The notes beneath the pieces are model-generated. The model did no database searches and was not told the origin of the DNA. It worked only from the letters and a program-made list of their open reading frames with translations. Shown one piece after another: positions 1 through 4,631 of a stretch of 4,631 nucleotides of DNA. Made by a program: the position numbers and the translations under genes. Every line of letters begins with the position of its first letter. Position 1 is the first letter of the stretch. Origin of the DNA: a virus (Duplodnaviria; Heunggongvirae; Uroviricota; Caudoviricetes); IMG/VR virus record IMGVR_UViG_2675903650_000013, positions 1 to 4,631 of that record. One strand, written 5' to 3'.

Positions 1-126
1 CGACATAATCTGAATCTGAGACAACATCTGACAAGGCTGGGACGGAAGTCACTGTCGTTCTCAAAATCGGTGGAGCTGCATGACAAGGTCATCGGGCATT
101 ATCTGAACATAAAACACTATCAGTAA
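1..126 (+). CDS. 3' end of an upstream gene (5' part outside window), hypothetical protein
   Basis: Frame 1 is the only frame open from the window edge: 41 sense codons ([41 protein letters not shown]) ending at TAA 124-126. All three minus-strand frames contain stops here. G+C is intermediate, unlike the AT-rich gene downstream. No motif recognised; about a 1-in-7 chance of such an open stretch at random. Confidence 0.3.
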
Positions 127-164
127 GTTGGAGTCATTACCTTATTTGTTTATTAGGATTTTTG

Positions 165-2297
165 ATGGAACTGTTACAGGAACACGGGGCGATACTTAAA
201 GTTGTAATCATGCCTACTACTGGGGAACAAACCATAATCCAAGGTTTCGATACTGGCCTCCTCAACCCAGAGATATCCAACATTCTTTTTTTATTGGCCA
301 AAACACCAAAAGAAATTAGTGAGATTTTTGTCAATGAAAATGATAACTTTCAGCCTACTCTAAGCGGGCTAAATCCTATTTTTTTAATATCTAAAGAAAA
401 TCTTGAAAAAATACCAAATATTTATCAAACGCCATTTTACTTAATTTTTTGTGCTAAAGAAGATTTTTCGTATGTTTGTGCTTTAAAAAAACATTTTGCT
501 ATACCACCTATAATTTGTTGCAATTCTAAACGCGCTGATCTACCACTTAATAAGATTAATAGTATATACTCATTTGATAAGGTGCTCTTCTCTCGGTTGA
601 AATTCATTGAGGATAAAATAAGAAAAAATCACAGTGAAAAGAAAATATCAACGAAGTTGAAGCGAAGAGGGGCTTTATTTAATAAATCACCTTGGAGATC
701 GACGCTTAACAATTCAACACTACCCAATGAGTTGTTAATTGAATCACTTGGCTATATGCTATCTCCACCAAAAAGAATTAAAGATGGTAGTAGCAAAAGA
801 GAGTTTATAGAAATAATACTTCATAGCGTTGATGCATACACCGAATGTTTAAAGGAATTAGATATACCACTTCCAACGGAAGTCTTACTTTTTGCTCCGG
901 GTATGCACTCTTTTTTATATGATAAAAATAATGACTTTTATGAGTTAATAACGGAAAATTTATCCACAATTGAGAAAAAATTCCTTATTGATGGAGTGTT
1001 GAGGAATCCTGGCTATTCTGGAATTAGACTTGATATAAATTCAGATAGAAAAGAACTTTTTAAAAGTCCTGCTTTCCGTTACCTCACCTCACTAAGACGC
1101 GCTGAAATGCGATTAACAACAGCTGCGATTACTTTATTTAGCATAAATAAAAAAATCCCAGCAATAAGATTGCCAAATGCAATAAATCATTACTCCAATT
1201 ATTTGAAAAATCTTGAAGATCTTGCAACTTCTTCTGGGATAAATAGTGAAGCATTCATCACTAAATCTAAAGCATTCAATACTGTTATTCGAAGAGCCCT
1301 TGGTTGCAAGTTGAGAACATATATAAGTAAAAACTATAGCGATTTGTCCTTTGTTTGTGATGTACCATTGGATTGGATTAGGTTTAATAACATACCTATA
1401 ATGTTCAGTCATGAGATATCAAGAATAAATGCTACGCCTGGTAACGTTCTTCTACAGAGCGCCTCTGCTTTTCCGCGCGTTTTAGTAAAAGCATCTGAGT
1501 TGAGAAAGGTTTTAGTTATACGTTCTTTTGAGCCTGATGATCACTTAAAGTTCATATTAGAGAACGCAATTGAGATATTTAAAAAACAGATGCCAGATCT
1601 TGATTGCGAGATTATTGATGTTAGATCGAAAGCTGAGTTTATTGATGCTCTAAATCAATATCAAGGTCATGTTCTTGTTATGGATTGTCATGGAAACCAT
1701 GATGGCAATGGGAGTCATGGATGGTTAATAATAGGTGAGGATAAAGTGGACACTTGGAGTTTGAGAAAAATAGCAAGAATTCCTCCTATCGTAATTCTGA
1801 GTGCATGTTTAACATCTGCCCTAAGCGGTTCTCATGCCTCTGTTGCTAATGGCTTCGTTATAAGTGGTGCATTAAGTGTCATCGGAACATTACTGCCAGT
1901 AAATGCGATAGACTCTGCTGTGTTTGTAAGTCGGTTGATCTACCGGTTTTACGAGTTTCCTTCGACGCTATCTACAAATTTTACACATGTTAATGTAAGG
2001 CTTTTTCTTTCTGTTTTTCTTAGGATGTCCTATGCAAGCGATTTAATAAGAGGATTTTTATCTGAAGATTTGATACCGAATAATTCATGGAGGAAAGATG
2101 CAGTTGATATTAACATGTATATAAACATGCTTCACCATGATTGGTATGATTATGTAATTAACAAATTGACGATGTTAACGGGGCTCACGAAAAAAGATGT
2201 ACTTGATTTTATCGATAGAAAATTATTCATAACCGAAACTATGTGCTATAGCCAAATTGGATTTCCAGATGCAATCACAATTAGTCTTAAAGATTGA
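165..2297 (+). CDS. Large CHAT-domain (caspase-like cysteine protease) protein with an uncharacterised N-terminal region of about 440 aa; candidate defence or abortive-infection effector
   Basis: Uninterrupted 2.1-kb ORF. The ORF track starts at TTG 162, but ATG 165 is preceded by AGGA (155-158) at 6-nt spacing, so 165 is the likely start. Stop TGA at 2295-2297. C-terminal motifs read directly: HVLVMDCHGNHDGNGSHGW (His-Gly at 1689-1694 or 1716-1721), IVILSACLTS (Cys codon 1806-1808), SGALSVIGTLLPVNAIDSAVFVSRLIYRFY. This order and spacing match the CHAT / peptidase C14-like fold. No Walker A (GxxxxGK[ST]) anywhere in the protein. Confidence 0.85.
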   Translation: MELLQEHGAILKVVIMPTTGEQTIIQGFDTGLLNPEISNILFLLAKTPKEISEIFVNENDNFQPTLSGLNPIFLISKENLEKIPNIYQTPFYLIFCAKEDFSYVCALKKHFAIPPIICCNSKRADLPLNKINSIYSFDKVLFSRLKFIEDKIRKNHSEKKISTKLKRRGALFNKSPWRSTLNNSTLPNELLIESLGYMLSPPKRIKDGSSKREFIEIILHSVDAYTECLKELDIPLPTEVLLFAPGMHSFLYDKNNDFYELITENLSTIEKKFLIDGVLRNPGYSGIRLDINSDRKELFKSPAFRYLTSLRRAEMRLTTAAITLFSINKKIPAIRLPNAINHYSNYLKNLEDLATSSGINSEAFITKSKAFNTVIRRALGCKLRTYISKNYSDLSFVCDVPLDWIRFNNIPIMFSHEISRINATPGNVLLQSASAFPRVLVKASELRKVLVIRSFEPDDHLKFILENAIEIFKKQMPDLDCEIIDVRSKAEFIDALNQYQGHVLVMDCHGNHDGNGSHGWLIIGEDKVDTWSLRKIARIPPIVILSACLTSALSGSHASVANGFVISGALSVIGTLLPVNAIDSAVFVSRLIYRFYEFPSTLSTNFTHVNVRLFLSVFLRMSYASDLIRGFLSEDLIPNNSWRKDAVDINMYINMLHHDWYDYVINKLTMLTGLTKKDVLDFIDRKLFITETMCYSQIGFPDAITISLKD
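1494..1991 (+). other. CHAT / caspase-like protease domain (approximate boundaries) within CDS 165..2297
   Basis: Region spanning the His-Gly motif (1689-1721), the LSAC catalytic-Cys motif (1797-1808) and the downstream small-residue helix plus FY motif. Boundaries are estimated by eye from motif positions, not from a profile alignment. Confidence 0.65.
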
Positions 2298-2328
2298 CAA
2301 CTGTATGTAATAAATATGGCATACTTCC

Positions 2329-2369
2329 GGCACAGAGCGAATATAACAGATCAGGTTTAGCTCTGTGCC
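2329..2369. repeat. Perfect 10-bp inverted repeat (GGCACAGAGC ... GCTCTGTGCC) with 21-nt spacer, in the spacer between convergent genes; possible bidirectional terminator or protein-binding / junction site
   Basis: Arms at 2329-2338 and 2360-2369 are exact reverse complements. The spacer contains a GATC. No U-tract follows on either strand, so it is not a canonical intrinsic terminator. Confidence 0.4.
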
Positions 2370-2404
2370 ATAGGTGTACCAACTCTCATCTGAGCTAATG
2401 CTCG

Positions 2405-2599
2405 TTACTCAATAACTCCCGCAAATTTGTAAATCTTGCGTGATGCCCATTTATTTGGGCATGATTTAATATCAGGATCTGGAAAGTCTGGCCTGTATTT
2501 CTGGCCAGTTCTCCTGTTTACGCTGTTCCAGCGAAGAACGGTCGATACTGAAACGCCACAGAAGTCGGCGACTTGTTTAGTTGTCATTAAGTTGTTCAT
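2405..2599 (-). CDS. Small HTH DNA-binding protein, excisionase / AlpA-like (64 aa)
   Basis: The track ORF 2405..2665 has a non-ATG start. The first ATG (2597-2599, MNNLMTTKQV...) is preceded by a strong SD, AGGAGGTG (complement of 2605-2612). The motif TTKQVADFCGVSVSTVLRW followed by FPDP...KW resembles the lambda Xis / AlpA-type winged-helix pattern. The start overlaps the upstream stop as TAATG. Confidence 0.7.
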   Translation of the reverse strand: MNNLMTTKQVADFCGVSVSTVLRWNSVNRRTGQKYRPDFPDPDIKSCPNKWASRKIYKFAGVIE

Positions 2600-3120
2600 T
2601 ACTTCACCTCCTGCGGTGGCTCCGGTAGCGGCATCCAGTGGGTTACTTTCGATAACCAACACCAAACATACTGTTTATCGTCCGGCATTCGCTCACTACA
2701 GCTTATCCAACCATCCGGAGTTACCGGAGAGTTGCCCGACAGCTCGTTCAACTTGTAAGTCTGGCTTACAGGTTCGGCACCATGAAGCATGGCGGCGCGG
2801 CAGGCGTTCCAGCCTTCATCAAAGCCGACTATGCCATTATTTAAAGACGGACGAACATCTGGCACCATCGGCACTGGCTTGGCTATATATAGCGGCTGAA
2901 CATACCAGCCCTTTGATAACCAACTGTCAGCAATGTTTTTACTCCGTGTTATTGCCGGAATACCTAAGCCATTGTCTGAATGCAGCCATGCCACCGGTTC
3001 TGCTTCCAGCGATACCAAAGCAATTTCATAAGCACGGCGCTCAATATTGTCTTGCACATCCAGACTGCCTATGCGCTCTTTGATTTCTTTAATCAGTTCT
3101 TTGTCGGTAAATGTGGTCAT
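2599..3120 (-). CDS. Phage protein with C-terminal DUF551-like domain (173 aa)
   Basis: ATG at 3118-3120, stop TAA at 2599-2601. The C-terminus DGWISCSERMPDDKQYVWCWLSKVTHWMPLPEPP matches the DUF551-type motif (GWIS..E.LP ... THWMPLPEPP) common in enterobacterial prophage early regions. The start overlaps the upstream stop as TAATG. GGAGG lies 10 nt upstream. Confidence 0.8.
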   Translation of the reverse strand: MTTFTDKELIKEIKERIGSLDVQDNIERRAYEIALVSLEAEPVAWLHSDNGLGIPAITRSKNIADSWLSKGWYVQPLYIAKPVPMVPDVRPSLNNGIVGFDEGWNACRAAMLHGAEPVSQTYKLNELSGNSPVTPDGWISCSERMPDDKQYVWCWLSKVTHWMPLPEPPQEVK

Positions 3121-3482
3121 TATGCCCCTGCCTCCGGTGCCTTTGGTATTACTGCCCAGTGAGTGATATTGACGTTTTCAAGATCCCCGACCTGAAATGT
3201 CCACTGCCATTCTCCGGTTTCCTTTTGTCCCCAGGTGTACCAGAGAGAACGCCAGCCAATCAGCCAGCCTTCTCCGTTAGCATCAAATAACAGAACACTT
3301 TCATTTGCAGGTGGCAATTCAGCTGACACTGGTATTATTTTGTTTTCCAGTGCCGCACATTTAGCTTCAAGCGCGTCGAATGTACGTACTAGGTACTCAG
3401 CATTTGTTTCGTTCACTTTCAGATCTCGCGGTACACATTTCCCGCGAAGAAACCCTTCCATTTCGAAAACATTCATGCGCAT
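3120..3482 (-). CDS. Phage protein, DUF551-like paralog (120 aa), YfdS-like by position and length
   Basis: ATG at 3480-3482 with GGAG 8 nt upstream (complement of 3491-3494). The C-terminus EGWLIGW...NITHWAVIPKAPE parallels the neighbouring gene's GW...THW..P motif. The start region ATGCGCATGA overlaps the stop of the HD gene. The K-12 symbol yfdS is suspected from memory of a 120-aa CPS-53 protein but is not verified. Confidence 0.8.
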   Translation of the reverse strand: MRMNVFEMEGFLRGKCVPRDLKVNETNAEYLVRTFDALEAKCAALENKIIPVSAELPPANESVLLFDANGEGWLIGWRSLWYTWGQKETGEWQWTFQVGDLENVNITHWAVIPKAPEAGA

Positions 3483-4009
3483 TTGCGTAACTCCGATAAC
3501 TCGTTAAAACGTTCCATAAACATCCCGTAGGCATGACCTGGCGACAGTGGAATAACTTTGAACATCTCTGTTGCCGGGATACCTTCCAATACAGGCCAGA
3601 AAGAGCCATCATCAAGTCCGAGATCGCGGCGTTCGGTTGCCAGCATAATGAGATCGGCATATTTCACGGGCGTACTCATAACTGGGGGTAATCCGTATTT
3701 CTCACGGATTACGGAGTCTATTTTTTCTTCCATTTGTTTATAGTCAGGAAGAAGGCGTTTCAGTGGTGCGGGAATGTCCTGGCAATACGCTTCTGTTGCA
3801 TCATGCATTAACGCTTCAAAAGCAAATTCCTGCGGCACCAGCTGGCTGCAAAGAACCGCATGTTGGGCGACGCTGTAGAAGTGCGAAAGATGACCGGCAA
3901 AGCGACAGATATTTGAAAGGGAAACCGCGATATCGTTAATATCGATGTCGTCTTTATTTATCCTGTCATAATAAAAATGCTTCCCGGAAAAAGTTTTAAT
4001 AAATGACAT
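3473..4009 (-). CDS. yfdR: HD-domain phosphohydrolase, prophage YfdR-like (178 aa)
   Basis: The track ORF starts at GTG 4034-4036. The ATG at 4007-4009 (MSFIKTFSGKHFYY...) has GGAG 6 nt upstream (GGAGAACAAAATG), so 4009 is the likely start. HD metal-binding pattern: H in VAQHAVL, HD in EALMHDATEAY, downstream D. Length and start match my recollection of E. coli K-12 CPS-53 YfdR; confirm by BLAST. Confidence 0.8.
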   Translation of the reverse strand: MSFIKTFSGKHFYYDRINKDDIDINDIAVSLSNICRFAGHLSHFYSVAQHAVLCSQLVPQEFAFEALMHDATEAYCQDIPAPLKRLLPDYKQMEEKIDSVIREKYGLPPVMSTPVKYADLIMLATERRDLGLDDGSFWPVLEGIPATEMFKVIPLSPGHAYGMFMERFNELSELRKCA

Positions 4010-4102
4010 TTTGTTCTCCACGTATATGCGCTGCACCGCGCTGAATTCTGGTAAAAAGAATCCCTCACCATCCGGCGATTATTGAGTAAATTACGTTTCC
4101 AT

Positions 4103-4124
4103 AAATGCCCCCGCAGGGGCATTT
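4103..4124. other. GC-rich hairpin: 9-bp stem AAATGCCCC / GGGGCATTT, 4-nt loop, in the 127-bp intergenic region; possible weak terminator, RNA stability element or processing site
   Basis: Arms 4103-4111 and 4116-4124 are perfect reverse complements. It begins 12 nt downstream of the stop of the minus-strand ORF 4137..4595. No U-tract follows on either strand. Confidence 0.4.
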
Positions 4125-4136
4125 GCAGTAATGAAA

Positions 4137-4595
4137 TCAGGCGGTGAAAGTACCAATAAAGGTTTCTACTTTGCTGTCCTTGAATTTCTCAACAAGCAGA
4201 TCACGAAATTCGTTAGCCATTTCTTCCTGCACCGCCTCCAGCTGTATAATGCGCAGAACCAGTACCGGACGATCGCCAGTGATAATGCTGAGGCGTAATT
4301 TAAACGGACGTTCTTTCAGACCTTCAAACGGAATGCATTTAAATTCAAATGCCACTGGCATAATGTCTTTGGTCTTCGCTTCGACAGACTCCATCAGGGA
4401 GCGTTTGCCGCTGAAGTCATTATCTTCAAAATCAGCGGTCTGGTTTGCTTCAATCGTGATTTTACGGACCGCCGCAGCCGCTTTTGTTGCCTGAATGGTG
4501 TCACCATTAGCATCAAAGCCCACAAGGTAGTCGGCCCAGTCTTCAATCCATTCTGCCAGTGATTTCTGGGAGTTACGCTCGCCATTAACAGACAA
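4137..4595 (-). CDS. Hypothetical prophage protein (up to 152 aa); start codon ambiguous, possibly TTG-initiated or an N-terminally disrupted remnant
   Basis: The translation looks protein-like throughout (e.g. ...[45 protein letters not shown]...). The frame opens just after an in-frame TGA (4608-4610). The first possible start is TTG 4593-4595 with no SD; the first ATG is 4392-4394, also without SD. No domain recognised. Confidence 0.45.
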
Positions 4596-4631
4596 CAGAG
4601 CAGAGTGTCACGAACGGTGCAATAGTGATCC

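Follow-up and report, generated by a model that had tools for sequence, protein, structure and literature searches.

The best described relative of the gene considered here is YfdR of Escherichia coli K-12 (b2361), encoded in the cryptic prophage CPS-53/KpLE1. In the study by Noguchi and Katayama (2016; PMC4776307, citing Zimmerman 2008), YfdR is assigned to the HD domain and is reported to act on 5′-dNMPs with low affinity; its affinity for nucleotides is given as much lower than that of E. coli YfbR, for which dNMP hydrolysis is reported as well. The enzymatic role of YfdR was called "elusive" (PMC4776307).

The same study ties YfdR to the initiation of chromosome replication. K-12 YfdR binds domain I of DnaA in a Phe46-dependent manner (PMC4776307; summarized in PMC5448010 and PMC12122000). 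[quoted passage not shown] In vivo, inhibition of initiation required yfdQ and yfdR together with either yfdS or yfdT; YfdR alone was insufficient, and a frameshift in yfdR abolished the suppression (PMC4776307). The requirement for yfdQ rests on a deletion only and not on a frameshift (PMC4776307), so that loss of a promoter, rather than loss of the protein, could explain it. [quoted passage not shown] This is the paper behind the statements in the original prediction, made from the sequence alone, on an interaction of YfdR with DnaA and on inhibition of initiation by the overexpressed cluster; it exists and agrees with both.

Lowering oriC initiation by binding DnaA is a property that YfdR shares with lambda P and with the DnaA domain I binders DiaA, Dps, L2, and SirA of Bacillus subtilis. 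The comparison with lambda P was drawn by the YfdR authors themselves (PMC4776307), and in a review YfdR is placed alongside Dps and L2 (PMC5448010). The proteins are unrelated, however, and lambda P acts on domain III of DnaA, whereas YfdR acts on domain I at Phe46.

Here, we describe a yfdR gene in a stretch of 4,631 nt (positions 1 to 4,631 of the IMG/VR record IMGVR_UViG_2675903650_000013), which we call the window. Taken as a whole, the locus is very probably best explained as encoding a YfdR orthologue, that is, an early-operon HD phosphohydrolase that would also bind DnaA, in a module that is incomplete here.

The yfdR gene and its operon

yfdR (3473..4009, minus strand) is an intact ORF for a protein of 178 aa, by orthology an HD-domain 5′-deoxynucleotidase and DnaA-binding protein. 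It starts with an ATG at 4009, with GGAG seven bases 5′ of it, and stops with TGA at 3473-3475; a longer, GTG-initiated ORF reaching up to 4036 is not the annotated start. Over its full length and without gaps, the protein is identical to K-12 YfdR, also of 178 aa, at 171 of 178 positions (96%; E 1e-134), and it matches phrog_318 at 4e-110. The gene had been predicted to be YfdR-like, and this comparison places the resemblance far beyond chance. The seven substitutions relative to K-12 (R16K, D23V, Q92R, S99A, K151N, S156A, and E170D) are conservative, lie away from the active site, and spare the catalytic residues. Judging from a dN/dS of 0.06-0.08, strong purifying selection acts on yfdR. 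RefSeq labels the same gene in near-identical prophages "yfdR: 5′-deoxynucleotidase," the function also given for K-12 YfdR, and the window yfdR is an ordinary intact copy, already known and correctly annotated there. As a discovery it is of small value, being a 96% orthologue of a named and partly characterized K-12 protein; about 55% of the complete E. coli genomes carry the gene (2,971 of 5,426, at 3,881 places).

The surroundings of yfdR are also close to those in K-12, with yfdQ upstream and yfdS downstream; yfdR stands between these two genes in K-12, in the intact prophage of KC-Dl-1, and in phage 2H10. The product of yfdS (3120..3482, minus) has 120 aa with a DUF551-like C terminus, is 98% identical to K-12 YfdS, and matches phrog_583 at 4e-81. 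From the yfdS ATG to the yfdR stop, the two genes overlap by 10 nt (ATGCGCATGA), as they do in K-12, and this indicates translational coupling. The following gene (2599..3120, minus), whose start overlaps the yfdS stop (TAATG), encodes a 173-aa DUF551 protein (Pfam DUF551 at 3.8e-11). This is a point of departure from K-12, in which YfdT has 101 aa; the first 42 residues alone are shared, and they match YfdT at 86%. The start of xis (2405..2602, minus) overlaps in turn the stop of the DUF551 gene (TAATG), and with xis the coupled operon ends. The 65-aa product is a TorI-like excisionase that matches phrog_1553, "excisionase," at 1e-35, and its NCBIfam excisionase matches are weak.

As read from these overlaps, yfdR is part of a translationally coupled yfdR-yfdS-DUF551-xis operon, and because of this membership it would be an early, or induction, gene. 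The element that hosts it is probably the early-left (pL-type) operon of a lambdoid prophage of the CPS-53/SfV-like kind. In the intact phage, leftward transcription from a repressor-controlled early promoter would run through yfdP-yfdQ-yfdR-yfdS-DUF551-xis. Gene order and coupling thus suggest that YfdR would be made together with the excisionase upon infection or induction and not in the quiescent lysogen.

The interrupted yfdQ and the flanking insertion sequences

Upstream of yfdR lies a spacer of 127 nt (4010..4136, minus) that includes the Shine-Dalgarno GGAG of yfdR and is 94.5% identical to that of K-12 (fold z-score, -2.5). Directly after the yfdQ stop it contains a perfect 9-bp hairpin (4103-4124), which is kept in K-12, and a terminator-like site is found at 4078-4065. 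An sRNA in this spacer was considered and rejected, the similarity to STnc100 being sub-threshold only (19.8 versus 47 bits).

The locus differs most from K-12 at its two ends: yfdQ is cut by IS100, and beyond xis there is a Borvo gene instead of attR. What is left of yfdQ (4137..4605, minus) is the C-terminal ~155 of 274 codons, corresponding to positions 120-269 of the 269 of the Pfam DUF2303 profile. This remnant is 98% identical to yfdQ of KC-Dl-1, and similarity to intact yfdQ ends at 4605; the 5′ part of the gene and everything upstream of it are outside the window. The left terminus of IS100 (IS21 family) follows at 4606..4631 on the plus strand, pointing away from yfdQ; its boundary can be placed only to within 4 nt (4602-4606). 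In many genomes, the sequence 61 bp upstream of IS100 istA matches the 30-mer at 4602-4631 with 100% identity. The opposite end of the window (1..141, plus) is the 3′ end of an IS1, with the InsB C terminus, its stop, and the terminal inverted repeat; 138 bp align to IS1A at 93.5%, and the alignment ends at IS1 position 1. The IS1 tip precedes the bovA ATG by 23 bp and takes the position that the end of int has in intact prophages. Neither the IS1 nor the IS100 junction is present in complete E. coli genomes, and exact 50-mers spanning the two junctions had no match among species-representative genomes.

The insertion of IS100 bears on function in two ways. It leaves the published replication-inhibiting module incomplete here, and it separates yfdR from the upstream early-left promoter. 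Of the yfdQRST set, the window holds an intact yfdR together with yfdS, and yfdQ is present only as the DUF2303 remnant just described. The proposal that the prophage carries a replication interference module therefore stands in part. The YfdR orthologue is intact and the literature is real, but the published phenotype needs yfdQ, which is broken in the window, and the phenotype itself may be an artifact.

A crude consensus scan of 4010-4631, which weak promoters and read-through could escape, found no promoter-like site on the minus strand. With yfdQ interrupted and a consensus promoter absent between the IS and yfdR, the module in the window is probably poorly expressed. One can go further and envision that this yfdR is a stranded, unexpressed, and inert remnant between two IS elements, a reading to which we assign somewhat less than an even chance. 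The IS tips at 141 and at about 4606, the truncation of yfdQ, and the lack of a consensus promoter upstream of yfdR within the window are what such a relic would look like, and IS100, since it points away, offers no known read-through into yfdR. Against this, the yfdR ORF and its three downstream partner genes are all intact, with no frameshifts. Both IS elements could moreover have simply inserted into a prophage that is otherwise complete, and weak promoters are possible.

The HD active site and binding to DnaA

The YfdR orthologue encoded here retains what is expected of an HD phosphohydrolase. The motifs VAQHAVL and LMHDATEAY, pointed out in the original prediction together with an H...HD...D metal-binding signature, are found at residues 47-53 and 67-75, and the signature is retained on alignment: the putative metal ligands H50, H69, D70, and D119 align with those of PDB 2gz4 and of YfbR. 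E73, D78, and the R36-F37 pair are also conserved. Across 52 homologues (40-69% identity), H50 is invariant, and H69, D70, E73, D78, and D119 are conserved in at least 90%. YfdR has the all-alpha HD fold that defines the HD-domain phosphohydrolase superfamily.

Within this superfamily, the family profile of YfdR matches Atu1052 of Agrobacterium tumefaciens (2gz4) at E 1.9e-30. Atu1052 is a chromosomally encoded HD-domain protein from structural genomics, 20-25% identical to YfdR; a literature search found no published function for it, and it informs us therefore about the fold of YfdR and not about its function. The YfdR/Atu1052 clade has about 23,000 cluster representatives, many of them in lytic phages, and is catalytically conserved.

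YfbR (PDB 2paq/2par/2pau; PF12917) is more remote. Its HD-x-x-E-x4-D-x-P-x-P-x-K core aligns with that of YfdR, the family profile matches 2paq at E 1.2e-4 (hhalign probability, 94.6%), and 46 of the 52 family members match PF12917 at E≤0.01. As a single sequence, YfdR falls narrowly under the Pfam gathering threshold for PF12917 (25.1 versus 25.9 bits) and under the HD_3 cutoff (17.4 versus 22.5 bits), and its match to YfbR spans only about 45-65 residues, with an E-value of 0.74 against PDB. That value, and a score of 20.4 against the 122-bit cutoff of NCBIfam NF003009, led us to reject YfdR as a YfbR equivalog, and the substrate specificity of YfbR is consequently not transferable to it. 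YfbR also differs in being the product of a housekeeping chromosomal gene and not of a phage gene. By these comparisons, YfdR is related to YfbR only as a distant superfamily member.

Two phage enzymes invite comparison as well. DatZ of cyanophage S-2L, an HD dATP triphosphohydrolase (PDB 6zpa), is 16% identical to YfdR and is not reached by the YfdR profile at E≤0.01; its removal of dATP serves a genome with a modified base, and base modification is not indicated in the window. The deoxynucleoside-5′-monophosphatase Dmp of phage T5 nominally converts dNMPs to deoxynucleosides and is, by annotation, expressed early, but with an hhalign probability of 0.07% it was rejected as a homologue and is an analogue at most.

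From the conserved residues, the ancestral activity of the family would be metal-dependent hydrolysis of nucleotide phosphates at H50/H69-D70/D119. By analogy to the K-12 report, the reaction may be 5′-dNMP to deoxynucleoside plus Pi, at low affinity, and such hydrolysis would reshape the pool of deoxynucleotides while the phage develops. Interference with dNTPs, as initially suggested, does not agree with the reported substrates, which are dNMPs, not dNTPs, and are bound with low affinity. In E. coli, again after the K-12 data, YfdR may also bind DnaA domain I and compete moderately with DiaA and DnaB. Oversupplied with YfdQ and either YfdS or YfdT, it would dampen oriC initiation, with an outcome like that of lambda P.

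Which of the two activities matters to the phage can be argued either way. YfdR might be solely a nucleotide pool enzyme of the phage, acting on dNMPs and possibly dNTPs, with the DnaA effects being multicopy artifacts that have no role in the phage cycle. We find this rather unlikely, even though the catalytic tetrad is conserved under purifying selection and the authors concede a possible artifact and report a deletion with no phenotype and merely "moderate" DiaA/DnaB competition (PMC4776307). The distribution of the family points the same way. It comprises 22,992 cluster representatives and occurs in the records of 324 phages, some of which are lytic or jumbo phages that infect unrelated hosts. 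Phages of Bacillus, Caulobacter, Vibrio, Rhizobium, and Stenotrophomonas are represented, and domain I of DnaA is different in these hosts. Against an enzyme with no part in initiation stand the stoichiometric binding to DnaA, the weak binding to F46A, the binding on oriC complexes, and the loss of suppression upon a yfdR frameshift (PMC4776307).

The converse, that blocking oriC through DnaA domain I is the main selected function in E. coli and that the HD site is vestigial or structural, seems to us distinctly less likely still. The specific, Phe46-dependent binding (PMC4776307) and the place of yfdR in an early operon, the home of host takeover genes, fit such a function, as does the nucleotide affinity of K-12 YfdR, much lower than that of YfbR, with an enzymatic role called "elusive" (PMC4776307). 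A vestigial site would hardly have kept all of its catalytic residues at the dN/dS found here or share fold and active site with thousands of distant phage homologues, and YfdR is not sufficient in vivo without yfdQ plus yfdS or yfdT.

The reading that we prefer, an early HD phosphohydrolase that also binds DnaA, could be extended into one mechanism, in which the early phage enzyme, bound to domain I of DnaA at oriC, prevents the loading of DnaB and drains deoxynucleotide salvage locally or globally, so that host initiation stops and phage replication proceeds. More broadly, the YfdR/Atu1052 clade could have an unrecognized substrate, such as a noncanonical or immune-related nucleotide, which is conceivable because the reported affinity for dNMPs is poor. 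We regard these extensions as improbable, and the window offers no special handle on the substrate of the clade or its role in the phage cycle. In the distant lytic phages Mendera and CcrSwift, the yfdR homologue is among small early hypothetical genes, with a ribonucleotide reductase, DHH phosphoesterase, or RNase H a few kilobases away, a context that is compatible with an early or nucleotide metabolism role and not diagnostic of it.

The neighboring Borvo gene

A putative defense gene had been noted next to yfdR, and it does match a catalogued family. bovA (165..2297, plus) encodes a 710-aa CHAT-domain protease, the single-gene Borvo defense system; PADLOC BovA is matched at 2.4e-240 (798 bits), with residues 4-710 on profile positions 2-715 of 720, and Pfam CHAT at 26.6 bits, over its cutoff. 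The further suggestion of a notable pairing between the two genes does not hold up. bovA is on the strand opposite to yfdR, occupies the variable cargo slot between xis and int, and occurs in 32 of the 5,426 complete E. coli genomes, versus the 2,971 with yfdR. It is independent cargo outside the yfdR operon, and the adjacency is an accident of lambdoid architecture, with no conserved linkage and no functional pairing. A defense or antidefense role for YfdR itself was likewise rejected: PADLOC has no match for YfdR, YfdS, the DUF551 protein, or the YfdQ remnant, and the text of the EVADES antidefense catalogue paper lacks the terms HD domain, nucleotidase, and phosphohydrolase.

That yfdR and bovA nevertheless act together, for example with YfdR modulating or protecting against BovA, is very improbable and already contradicted by their distribution, since bovA, although it adjoins the yfdRS-xis block in 32 of 32 bovA genomes, is found at only 32 of the 3,881 yfdR places. 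Borvo is putatively triggered by a phage DNA polymerase. All bovA copies share at least 99.4% identity, but yfdR is a mosaic patch of ~96%, which suggests separate histories. In phage 2H10, the same yfdPQRS-xis layout carries a different cargo gene in the slot that bovA occupies here.

yfdR and its HD-domain family

The gene at 3473..4009 on the minus strand is a 178-codon ORF running from an ATG at 4009, with a GGAG seven bases 5′ of it, to a TGA stop at 3473-3475. A mechanical ORF list gave a longer start at a GTG (4036); the ATG at 4009 is the annotated start in every relative. That this is a YfdR-like gene, as originally predicted, was borne out: the product is identical to E. coli K-12 YfdR (b2361) at 171 of 178 residues without gaps (E 1e-134). 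The HD motifs read from the translation, VAQHAVL (residues 47-53) and LMHDATEAY (residues 67-75), are both present, and the seven residues that differ from K-12 all lie outside the catalytic positions. The ORF is confirmed as real, not chance; its dN/dS is 0.08 against K-12 and 0.06 against strain KC-Dl-1, which carries a near-identical intact prophage. It is also ordinary. Over half of E. coli genomes carry such a gene, its K-12 prophage orthologue is a named protein, and it has been annotated already; RefSeq labels the same gene in near-identical prophages "yfdR: 5′-deoxynucleotidase".

As a single sequence, YfdR fell narrowly below threshold for the Pfam YfbR-like model (25.1 bits, cutoff 25.9) and below that for HD_3 (17.4 versus 22.5), and a score of 20.4 against the 122-bit NCBIfam cutoff rules it out as a YfbR equivalog. 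At the profile level, the HD assignment is secure. With E<=0.001, an exhaustive search returned 22,992 cluster representatives. Among 52 aligned members (40-69% identical) H50 never varies, and H69, D70, E73, D78, D119 and the R36-F37 pair are each at least 90% conserved. PF12917 is matched by 46 of these 52 members. The family profile matches Atu1052 (PDB 2gz4) over its whole length at 1.9e-30; the match to YfbR (2paq) is distant, at 1.2e-4, with an hhalign probability of 94.6%. The metal ligands of DatZ (H34/H66-D67/D119, plus E70) correspond to H50/H69-D70/D119 and E73 of YfdR. Dmp of phage T5, which is the classical dNMP phosphatase among phage enzymes, is not a homologue. Among metagenomic relatives, six of about 350-410 aa (P0122, P0127, P0128, P0135, P0169 and P0174) have two tandem YfdR-like HD domains.

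An interrupted early-left operon

On the minus strand, a truncated yfdQ and a 127-nt spacer are followed by yfdR, yfdS (3120..3482, 98% identical to K-12 YfdS), a DUF551 gene (2599-3120; 173 aa, the first 42 residues matching YfdT) and the excisionase gene xis (2405..2602, phrog_1553). Stop and start codons overlap, as ATGCGCATGA at yfdR/yfdS and as TAATG at yfdS/DUF551 and DUF551/xis, so that yfdR through xis forms one translationally coupled unit. Since the same block runs upstream via yfdP to the repressor/cro region both in the intact KC-Dl-1 prophage and in the functional temperate phage 2H10, it belongs to a lambdoid phage's early-left (pL-type) operon. YfdR would be made at infection or induction alongside excisionase, not in the resting lysogen. 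The DUF551 position is, to judge from sequence comparison, modular and variable: its gene encodes 173 aa here, 206 aa (621 nt) in KC-Dl-1 and 101 aa (YfdT) in K-12, shares only the first ~42 residues with YfdT, and has a last 57 nt that cannot be aligned to KC-Dl-1.

Identity to KC-Dl-1 is at least 99.6% from bovA through yfdS but drops to ~96% across yfdR and the spacer upstream of it (3473-4136 versus 18431-19094 of the KC-Dl-1 locus). This suggests a recombination patch within the operon, and the mosaic points to separate histories for bovA and yfdR. In the spacer (4010-4136, minus strand) a perfect 9-bp GC-rich hairpin (4103-4124) directly follows the stop codon of yfdQ, and a second terminator-like site lies at 4078-4065. 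The spacer is kept in K-12 (94.5% identity, hairpin intact), and the span 3966-4145 weakly resembles the Salmonella sRNA STnc100, scoring below the Rfam threshold (19.8 versus 47 bits). In two relatives, P0002 (250 aa, from E. coli) and P0015 (275 aa), a DUF2303 (YfdQ) match is joined to a near-identical YfdR part, possibly via fusions or deletions across this spacer.

Both ends of the window are insertion sequences. One end (plus strand, 4602-4631) is the left tip of an IS21-family element, IS100; its boundary is set at 4606, ambiguous by up to 4 nt. The tip is 100% identical to copies 61 bp upstream of istA, and IS100 points away from yfdQ. It interrupts yfdQ (minus strand, 4137..~4605), which therefore keeps only ~155 of 274 codons (Pfam DUF2303 profile positions 120-269). 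At the other end (1-141, plus strand), the last 138 bp of IS1 occupy bases 4-141 and comprise the InsB C-terminus and inverted repeat (93.5% identical to IS1A). A search of 5,426 complete E. coli genomes and of the species-representative genomes found neither junction, so the window resembles a short, repeat-bounded contig.

YfdR and replication initiation

The paper behind the original prediction exists and bears out what was attributed to it (Noguchi & Katayama 2016, Front Microbiol 7:239; PMC4776307). Later papers repeat its DnaA finding with no added data (PMC12122000, PMC5448010). We think it highly probable that YfdR has the identity and general mode of action that follow. It would be an early phage HD phosphohydrolase whose conserved function is probably metal-dependent nucleotide dephosphorylation; the reported reaction is hydrolysis of dNMPs, with low affinity. 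The E. coli protein would also bind DnaA domain I and, when abundant together with its operon partners, help to damp host initiation. Identity, synteny, active site, fold, selection and operon coupling come from our own analysis; DnaA binding and gene requirements come from the literature. Expression timing and physiological role we infer.

The predicted replication or dNTP interference module stands in part: DnaA binding and multicopy inhibition are documented, but the reported activity is on dNMPs and yfdQ is cut here. With the upstream promoter also separated, the replication-inhibiting module is locally incomplete. This copy of yfdR may even be effectively silent, a reading we find plausible but do not favor; a consensus scan gave no minus-strand promoter-like site from 4010 to the window end, and the yfdR frame itself is intact. 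Two further rivals make YfdR an enzyme only, which we hold less likely than the main reading, or a DnaA inhibitor first, which we hold unlikely. Purified His-YfdR bound DnaA, with DnaA Phe46 important for binding (PMC4776307). [quoted passage not shown] Deleting yfdQRST had no effect on initiation or hydroxyurea resistance, and the authors allow that the overexpression effect may be an artifact (PMC4776307). The need for yfdR and yfdS was tested by frameshifts and that for yfdQ by restriction-fragment deletion (PMC4776307), so the latter could reflect a promoter effect. It seems quite improbable that catalysis and DnaA binding are mechanistically coupled, or that some physiological substrate of the large YfdR/Atu1052 clade has gone unrecognised; the window is not specially placed to address either idea.

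The Borvo neighbor and the xis-int interval

The neighboring gene, bovA (165..2297, plus strand), encodes a 710-aa CHAT protein that matches BovA, the single gene of Borvo, over its full length (PADLOC, 798 bits), and is therefore a real defense gene. Borvo is described as killing infected cells by means of a CHAT protease, with a phage DNA polymerase as its putative trigger. The bovA ATG is 23 bp downstream of the IS1 tip, with insB directed at bovA, and IS1 stands in place of the int-bovA intergenic sequence of intact prophages; the native promoter may thus be gone, or read-through from IS1 may have taken over its role.

The notable pairing of yfdR with a defense gene was right about the neighbor, but the linkage is not conserved: of 5,426 complete E. 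coli genomes, 2,971 carry yfdR (3,881 places in all) and only 32 carry bovA, which in each of them has the arrangement seen here and is at least 99.4% identical. Functional linkage of yfdR with Borvo is contradicted by this distribution. CPS-53 of K-12 lacks bovA. The gene lies on the strand opposite to the yfdR operon, in the xis-int interval, and the adjacency is a product of lambdoid genome architecture, in which this cargo slot adjoins the end of the early-left operon. In phage 2H10 an unrelated gene occupies the interval (7987-8706 of its locus). Cargo thus differs among phages with a shared yfdPQRS-xis backbone, which makes the interval a hotspot worth mining for other defense genes.
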